Positions 1-259 of a DNA stretch of 259 nt are shown piece by piece; position 1 is the stretch's first letter, and every line of letters begins with the position of its first letter. Origin of the DNA: Escherichia coli (GTDB lineage Bacteria > Pseudomonadota > Gammaproteobacteria > Enterobacterales > Enterobacteriaceae). Below the pieces are notes generated by a model. The model worked only from the letters and a program-made list of their open reading frames with translations, searched no databases and was not told the origin of the DNA. The translations under genes and the position numbers were made by a program. The DNA lies in NCBI RefSeq assembly GCF_003334385.1, contig NZ_QOWN01000217.1. One strand, 5' to 3'.

Positions 1-259
1 CCAGCGCTTCAATCTCTTTTTTCATCGTGCGCTGTCTGACATGAATTTCCAGACCTTTGGTAAACATCGCCTGCTCTGCAGCAGCACTCAGAGCAATCAG
101 TGTTTCAGCGTCCATCGGTACGTCATTATTGTCCGCATCCGTCCAGAAAAACGCCTCCGGCAGTTTCCCCGCTTTCGCTGCCGCCACCGACGGCTCAAGA
201 CGCGTCTGCGTTGACTTCCCGTAGTCCCATTTACGCCCATTGTGCTCAAACGTGTAGTT
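1..259 (-). CDS. Partial CDS, both ends outside the window; hypothetical protein, possibly a phage tail-fibre-assembly-like (Tfa-like) accessory protein (functional call is low confidence)
   Basis: Seen in sequence: the reverse-complement reading frame starting at position 259 is open for all 86 codons (plus positions 259 down to 2), with no TAA/TAG/TGA. The translation has a balanced, protein-like composition, while the other two minus frames hit stops quickly (one at the fourth codon, the other after about 53 codons) and the mirror plus frame gives an Arg/Cys/His-rich product typical of antisense noise. Third-position G/C bias and codon choice fit enterobacterial coding sequence. Functional hint is from memory only: the segment E5-W39 (EHNGRKWDYGKSTQTRLEPSVAAAKAGKLPEAFFW) loosely resembles the lambda Tfa region EDHRGKTVYD...GPLPENVTW. 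The confidence value refers to the existence of the CDS, not to the function. Confidence 0.8.

Follow-up and report, generated by a model that had tools for sequence, protein, structure and literature searches.

The window, the whole 259-nucleotide stretch of Escherichia coli DNA analysed here, is an internal piece of an already annotated E. coli prophage gene and lies in the conserved DUF4376 half of that gene. By analogy with Tfa, the encoded 193-aa protein is probably a Tfa-like but non-homologous intermolecular tail-fibre chaperone, a reading to which we assign a probability of roughly 80%. It is preferred because experiments have demonstrated a fibre-chaperone role for distant DUF4376 proteins, namely V22 gp27 and the CJIE1 protein. 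What this analysis observed directly is the coding status and boundaries of the gene, its synteny, its domain architecture, and the shuffling and co-variation of its modules.

Gene identity and occurrence

The window corresponds to codons 92-177 of an intact 193-codon gene at 100% identity, the fragment occupying window 1..259 on the minus strand, as judged by the open frame, sequence identity, the Pfam match and dN/dS. The reference copy is that of strain 2013C-3033 (locus L001), where the CDS spans 7728-8309 (582 nt) and the window corresponds to 8001-8259. Its protein, WP_106894450.1, is named 'DUF4376 domain-containing protein', and some phage records use 'tail fiber assembly protein' instead. 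In the 100%-identical copies examined, the gene starts 273 nt beyond window position 259, at an ATG preceded at a distance of 7 nt by an AGGAG Shine-Dalgarno sequence, and its TGA stop codon ends 50 nt beyond window position 1.

The original prediction, made from the window alone, held that the window is wholly internal to one minus-strand gene, and this is confirmed, since both gene ends lie outside it in every 100%-identical copy examined. It had also proposed extending the sequence on both sides; this was done on the 100%-identical copies, which carry an intact 582-nt gene, although the window's own flanks are not among them. The frameshift, stop or pseudogene adjoining the window that it considered was not seen, and the listed matches of at least 99.6% identity are all annotated as intact CDSs.

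Identity of 100% to the window is found in at least 17 E. coli chromosomes and in phages PhiR5_1, PhiR12_2_star and PhiR12_4, while orf-191A of prophage P-EibA is 99.2% identical. When 5,426 complete E. coli genomes were searched with blastn, the whole gene was present in 29, and about 210 further genomes contained only nt 241-579 of it. Matching genomes hold a median of 2-3 copies, with a maximum of 9. The sequence is therefore not new: it has been in GenBank since the P-Eib prophage records, is annotated in RefSeq, and belongs to a family with characterised members.

In phage PhiR12_1 (L003 1142-4309), an insertion that bears a transposase/integrase together with an ATP-binding transposition helper, an IS21-like pair, interrupts the DUF4376 gene. 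A fragment of 126 nt is left on the 5' side and an ORF of 519 nt on the 3' side, each under the annotation 'tail fibers'; despite this split, PhiR12_1 was recovered on K-12. The same arrangement is present in PhiR12_2.

Module architecture

On the full protein, Pfam DUF4376 matches residues 73-183 against model positions 2-102 of 106 with an E-value of 4.4e-20, and a Pfam search of residues 1-72 returned no domain. Aligning 13 copies revealed at least four unrelated N-modules joined to one conserved C-module, with a fixed junction just before 'EINAWRNAME'. These N-modules are type A, of about 79 aa, which is found in the gene of the window; the P-EibA type; type C, of about 110 aa; and the O104:H4 type. 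The window begins 11 codons past the junction and lies entirely inside the conserved C-module.

The C-terminal 100 aa of the preceding fibre co-varies with the N-module, with a Spearman rho of 0.47 (p 7e-5, computed over non-independent pairs and therefore indicative only), and shows no co-variation with the DUF4376 module (rho 0.004). Type-A fibres end in ...GLFQRAY and are 94-99% identical where the N-module is 95-100% identical, and locus L013 is intermediate in both fibre C-terminus and N-module identity. The co-variation is weaker in type-C loci, where an extra ORF separates the fibre and DUF4376 genes.

Predicted fold

An AlphaFold2 monomer, built from a 116-sequence alignment of diverse representatives, presents a mean pLDDT of 97.3 and a pTM of 0.78. 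The part encoded outside the window comprises the N-module, with predicted strands 3-11, 18-25 and 32-37 and a helix at 43-53, followed by a helix at 70-90. The window itself encodes, on the minus strand, a first predicted beta-hairpin, YTFEH / KWDYG (codons 93-104, window 221..256; strands 93-97 and 100-104), a middle helix (codons 106-120, window 173..217), the consensus signature LPxGFFWTDADNxDVP (codons 124-139, window 116..163), which would form a second small beta-hairpin with strands 129-131 and 137-139, and a long C-terminal helix (codons 142-175, window 8..109). The last of these carries the IHxRQRxMK motif (window 20-46) and pairs in the model with helix 70-90 as an antiparallel helical hairpin. 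The DUF4376 module, aa ~70-185, is thus predicted to be a long hairpin of antiparallel helices, with two small beta-hairpins as its cap.

Conservation is concentrated in a few residues of these elements. W102 and D103 are conserved, 'GRxWD' being kept in the 116-sequence alignment; W130 is conserved at 90% or more, as is K171 in that alignment; and R166, Q167, M170 and K171 are invariant among 18 diverse sequences.

When three DUF4376 domains were joined by linkers and modelled with AlphaFold2, the result presented a pTM of 0.68 and domain pLDDT values of 81-93, and was confident in only two of five models. This model is compatible with self-association of DUF4376. A Foldseek search against the PDB gave no match at E<=1e-3. 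In BFVD, fold matches were obtained to DUF4376 proteins of Aeromonas, Pseudomonas, Synechococcus, Bacillus, Enterococcus and crAss-like phages, one of them named 'tail assembly chaperone'.

Sequence searches of the PDB with the protein and with the 116-sequence profile returned nothing meaningful. The top match, to the colicin I receptor Cir, covers 17 residues at an E-value of about 1 and is at chance level; in it, residues 92-108 (window 209-259, NYTFEHNGRKWDYGKST) resemble Cir residues ~250-266 (NYSVSHNGR-WDYGTS), probably by chance. A match to HflX, with an E-value above 1, is not meaningful either.

The DUF4376 family and the proposed function

The protein matches PHROG 1141, of category 'tail', with an E-value of 2.5e-78, and a search of NCBIfam with it gave no match. 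Among 150 family representatives, most are 120-260 aa long and have the DUF4376 match at the C-terminus. Here, likewise, DUF4376 forms the C-terminal half of a small protein whose gene comes immediately after a fibre gene.

The characterised members are distant. Gp27 of V22, a 195-aa protein with DUF4376 at 92-184, is required for the gp26 fibre to bind cells (PMC7289586), and function of the Campylobacter CJIE1 H-fibre needs the DUF4376 gene downstream of it (PMC7882524). For A5 gp9 and related Alteromonas proteins, both homotrimers and 3:3 complexes with the fibre knob have been predicted, and these chaperones were proposed to act as transient caps (PMC10579305).

The protein studied here resembles the chaperones of the V22 gp27/A5 gp9 type in several respects: the same Pfam domain makes up the C-terminal half of a protein of ~190-240 aa (here 193 aa, with the domain at 73-183), the gene lies immediately downstream of a fibre/RBP gene, and a helical body with beta-hairpins comes after a small N-region of beta-strands. 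It differs from them in its host, E. coli, in serving a lambdoid siphovirus side fibre with collagen repeats, and in its N-module. The comparison with the nearest tested relatives (Alteromonas, Campylobacter) is made through the common Pfam domain alone, with no direct alignment.

For the E. coli protein, we infer binding of the N-module to the fibre, the oligomeric state, chaperone activity, and release or retention after assembly. The N-module (~aa 1-65; a three-stranded sheet and a helix) would be fibre-specific and would dock on the C-terminal knob of its cognate fibre, for example WP_106894451. The DUF4376 module would act as a conserved 'engine', self-associating and bringing three fibre C-termini into register, so that trimerisation would start at the distal tip and zip toward the fibre N-terminus. 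After assembly, the chaperone would be released or kept as a transient cap. The logic would be the same as that of Tfa of Mu, P2 and lambda, with a C-module that has no detectable homology to that of Tfa.

The strongest alternative, which we nevertheless consider unlikely, is that the protein stays in the fibre tip permanently and itself contacts the host receptor, as a distal adhesin or cap comparable to gp38 of T2/S16 or to the Tfa retained by Mu. It is not fully exclusive of the chaperone reading. In its favour, TfaMu stays bound to its fibre, and a 'transient cap' has been proposed for DUF4376 chaperones (PMC7289586, PMC10579305). An N-module that varies with fibre type also agrees with it, as do PHROGs and several GenBank records in naming the family 'tail fiber protein', although such database names are automatic labels and not tests. 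However, V22 gp27 separates completely from the active gp26 fibre on size-exclusion chromatography (PMC7289586). Furthermore, DUF4376, which is both the largest part of the protein and the best conserved (dN/dS ~0.1), is common to fibres with unrelated tips, and a surface that contacts the receptor would be expected to behave in the opposite way. In PB1-like virion structures, gene numbering differs and the distal fibre is unresolved.

Prophage neighbourhood

The locus is the right end of a lambdoid E. coli prophage of the P-Eib type. In the reference locus, tail genes L, K-like peptidase, I and gpJ are followed by a 496-aa side tail fibre and then by the DUF4376 gene, which begins 17 nt after the stop of this collagen-like fibre gene; lom is present in some copies of the locus. 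The order gpJ-(lom/hok)-fibre-[small ORF]-DUF4376 gene is kept in 12 lambdoid loci, and the DUF4376 gene also directly follows a fibre gene in phiSTEC1589-Stx1c and phiP27. Operon context and any undescribed system had been said to need flanking sequence. The context is now known, the gene being the last of a prophage tail-fibre module, and the notion of an undescribed system does not hold.

The 496-aa fibre comprises a Pfam 'prophage tail fibre N-terminal' domain, four collagen-repeat blocks and a Phage_fiber_2 repeat, and its C-terminal ~90 aa lie outside these Pfam domains. In the classification of Ghosh et al. (PMC3368898), it falls into the EPclC class.

On the 3' side of the DUF4376 gene, about 700 nt of intergenic DNA precede the cargo genes eib, orf-156 and eaaA. 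This cargo (L001 9002-15029; L002 3918-9939) comprises a YadA-like immunoglobulin-binding adhesin (eib), orf-156 and an S6 autotransporter (eaaA). Virulence-type cargo thus stands directly downstream of the tail-fibre module; in other copies, potB/ykgJ or dinI closes the module and cargo is absent. A G+C-rich hairpin lies 8 nt past the stop of the DUF4376 gene (L001 8317-8334). Its A-run is on the same strand as the gene and its T-run on the other one, and by its score it is a terminator solely for transcripts arriving from the cargo. Another hairpin of this kind is present at L001 8446-8463.

The proximity of the cargo raises the alternative that the gene is itself lysogenic-conversion cargo working with eib and not with the tail fibre. 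An eib/YadA-like gene does lie about 0.4-0.8 kb downstream in loci L001, L002, L005, L006, L007 and L009, but the DUF4376 gene occurs without eib in L004, L008, L010-L014 and phiP27, and E217 likewise has no eib. In addition, a fibre gene always lies directly before it, across a gap of 10-20 nt or a small ORF, and the intergenic gap and hairpins lie between it and eib. This alternative is therefore highly improbable, the distribution of the gene having already largely refuted it.

Some loci hold further small genes beside the fibre. Between the fibre and the type-C DUF4376 genes of L010 (2444-2656) and L012 (2447-2671) there are ORFs of 70-74 aa that match only an N-terminal portion of PHROG 188, 'tail fiber assembly protein', at positions 43-108 of 207. 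They may be either truncated Tfa remnants or stand-alone fibre-binding domains. In L011 (526-2660), two genes come after the fibre: a 170-aa ORF that matches PHROG 1121, 'tail fiber adhesin', and then the DUF4376 gene. The end of that fibre (…LDRLEALTGYLYEI…GLIAQDAQKALPELV…) looks like a candidate intramolecular chaperone (Peptidase_S74) domain. If so, the locus would hold three different fibre-maturation devices.

Coding evidence

Minus-strand frame 1, read from window 259 to 2, runs through 86 codons without a stop, while the remaining five frames have one to seven stops each; its translation reads NYTFEHNGRKWDYG...KKEIEAL. Only one of the 86 codons is rare in E. coli, against 12 and 18 in two other minus frames, CTG accounts for five of the six leucine codons, and G is enriched at codon position 1. 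The stop-free frame with good codon usage that was originally described is therefore confirmed.

Its length, in turn, had been said to arise by chance only a few percent of the time. This holds for one named frame, for which the analytical expectation is 1.4% and shuffling leaves the frame stop-free in 1.2% (mononucleotide) to 2.0% (dinucleotide-preserving) of cases. It is overstated for the window as a whole: because six frames are available, one or more fully open frames turn up in 19% (mononucleotide) to 44% (dinucleotide) of the shuffled windows, and ORF length alone is not significant.

Coding status rests instead on comparative evidence, i.e., dN/dS and the Pfam match. Pfam DUF4376 (PF14301) matches the 86-aa window fragment with an E-value of 1.9e-15. 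Over the 86 window codons of 12 paralogous or orthologous copies, variable sites at codon positions 1, 2 and 3 number 43, 35 and 74, and pairwise dN/dS is 0.09-0.2. These values bear out the claim that the translation is protein-like and unlikely to be due to chance, and the Pfam check suggested with it yielded DUF4376. The least probable of the alternatives, that the frame is a chance ORF or a decaying pseudogene fragment, can draw on the open frames of shuffled windows, on the related copy in PhiR12_1 split by an IS element and on gene intactness being read from identical copies rather than from the window's own flanks, but is opposed by a low dN/dS with changes mostly at the third position, by the Pfam E-value, by 1210 representative clusters at E<=1e-3 among 1.84 billion proteins, and by every identical copy examined being intact with an RBS.

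Two antisense ORFs, at window 41-214 (+) and 57-224 (+), encoding 57 and 55 aa, were rejected as genes. Although both are open in most homologues, they have stops in some copies, their starts are not conserved (ATG/GTG/ATT and TTG/TTA/TTC), and the substitutions fit the minus frame. They were judged to be by-products of the codon bias of the sense frame. An Rfam search of the window at E<=1 gave zero matches, and a repeat search of it found nothing beyond one weak 17-nt inverted repeat.

Comparison with Tfa and other chaperones

According to the passages on Tfa in PMC9608196 and PMC7882524 (citing North et al. 2019), the variable N-domain of Tfa binds the fibre tip; the conserved C-terminal helical domain is there thought to trimerise and to start assembly at the fibre C-terminus. 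The gene studied here has the same position as lambda tfa (J-lom-stf-tfa in lambda, J-(lom)-fibre-DUF4376 here), the same strand and the same size, and it follows the fibre gene just as orf-194 follows orf-314 in lambda. It also has the two-module plan of the Tfa family, a variable N-domain and a conserved C-domain, with fibre binding presumed by analogy.

No detectable homology accompanies this likeness. The Caudo_TAP (PF02413) HMM does not match the protein, and BLASTP against lambda Tfa and Mu U found no similarity, with E-values of 0.07 or worse over at most 12 residues. Profile comparison with hhalign gave 0.2% for the type-A N-module against Tfa and 0.1% for DUF4376 against the Tfa C-domain, the Tfa profile being shallow (Neff ~2), while the positive control, a paralogue N-domain against Tfa, gave 99.3%. 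Hence the assertion that DUF4376 is a homologue of the TfaMu C-terminus (PMC7882524) is unsupported, within the reach of this shallow profile. That the protein works like Tfa is an analogy, not homology.

The paralogue with the type-C N-module connects the two systems. Its DUF4376 module is up to 91% identical in DNA to that of the window, and its N-module matches residues 26-112 of Mu U and P2 G at 45% identity (E 5e-24), as well as residues 27-110 of PDB 5YVQ chain B (TfaMu) with an E-value of 1.8e-19. Such natural chimeras join a Mu/P2 Tfa N-domain to DUF4376. Given that this N-module is of the Mu/P2 Tfa type, DUF4376 stands where the Tfa C-domain stands.

The type-A N-module recurs in gp47 of E217 (hhalign 97.4%, E 1e-11), a 142-aa 'tail fiber protein' encoded by a small gene directly after the long tail fibre gene (L019 4501-4929). 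The C-half of E217 gp47 is without DUF4376, and its likeness to the Tfa C-region is weak (phrog_188 E 5e-4, hhalign 9%, no Pfam match) and suggestive at most. By tblastn, the first ~61 residues of the E. coli protein have 44-49% identity with the gp47 start in about 300 PB1-like Pseudomonas myophages. The N-module is therefore common to lambdoid coliphage and Pbunavirus fibre accessory genes.

Both accessory types coexist in phiP27 (L020 956-4564), where the pair of fibre L54 and Tfa L55 is followed by the pair of fibre L56 and DUF4376 protein L57, each presumably fibre-specific. L57 is 36% identical to the 193-aa protein over its full length.

Among other chaperones, those of the Peptidase_S74 type (T5 pb1, K1F endosialidase) are intramolecular and have a helical core with beta-hairpin 'tentacles' capping the distal tip of the trimeric fibre, and a likeness to them has been claimed for the Alteromonas DUF4376 chaperones (PMC10579305). 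Domains of that type are covalently joined to the fibre C-terminus and cleave themselves off, whereas the DUF4376 protein has a CDS, an RBS and an ATG of its own. Prefoldin beta subunits and Skp/OmpH-like holdase chaperones are also counted among the closest known systems.

Recombination within the window

A per-codon difference map places two approximate breakpoints in the window. The first is at codon ~134 (window 131..133): copies L004, L009 and L010 hardly differ from the reference on its upstream side and diverge on its downstream side. The second is at codon ~157 (window 62..64), where L007 and L008, nucleotide-identical to the reference over codons 81-156, become about 25-30% divergent up to the stop. 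These sharp switches from 0% to ~25-30% divergence mark recombination breakpoints inside the conserved DUF4376 module. Conserved DUF4376 DNA among co-resident prophages would also serve as a homology arm, and recombination through it would exchange a host-range cassette made of the fibre tip and the N-module.

Discussion

The modular principle has already been set out for Tfa proteins. What is added here is a reasoned function for the E. coli lambdoid clade, the finding of natural chimeras in which DUF4376 takes the slot of the Tfa C-domain, and breakpoints within the window.

A wider reading, which we put forward tentatively and which may well prove wrong, is that DUF4376 is an independent, non-homologous 'assembly engine' swapped freely with the Tfa C-domain, that its prefoldin-like fold of coiled coil and hairpin works at fibre tips as a trimeric clamp or cap, and that its DNA doubles as a right-hand homology arm for exchange between co-resident prophages. 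If so, all four pairings of the two N-modules (Mu/P2-Tfa; PB1/E217) with the two C-modules (Tfa C-domain; DUF4376) would exist, and the breakpoints inside the window would be footprints of host-range cassette exchange.

The analysis provides a reasoned function for a DUF gene that about 240 of the 5,426 complete E. coli genomes carry, frequently with copies in several prophages of one genome. For the engineering of lambdoid fibres, i.e., host-range retargeting, it suggests the cognate N-module should be carried along with the fibre, while the DUF4376 half appears interchangeable. The gene is ordinary, yet it presents a clear example of the shuffling of phage gene modules.
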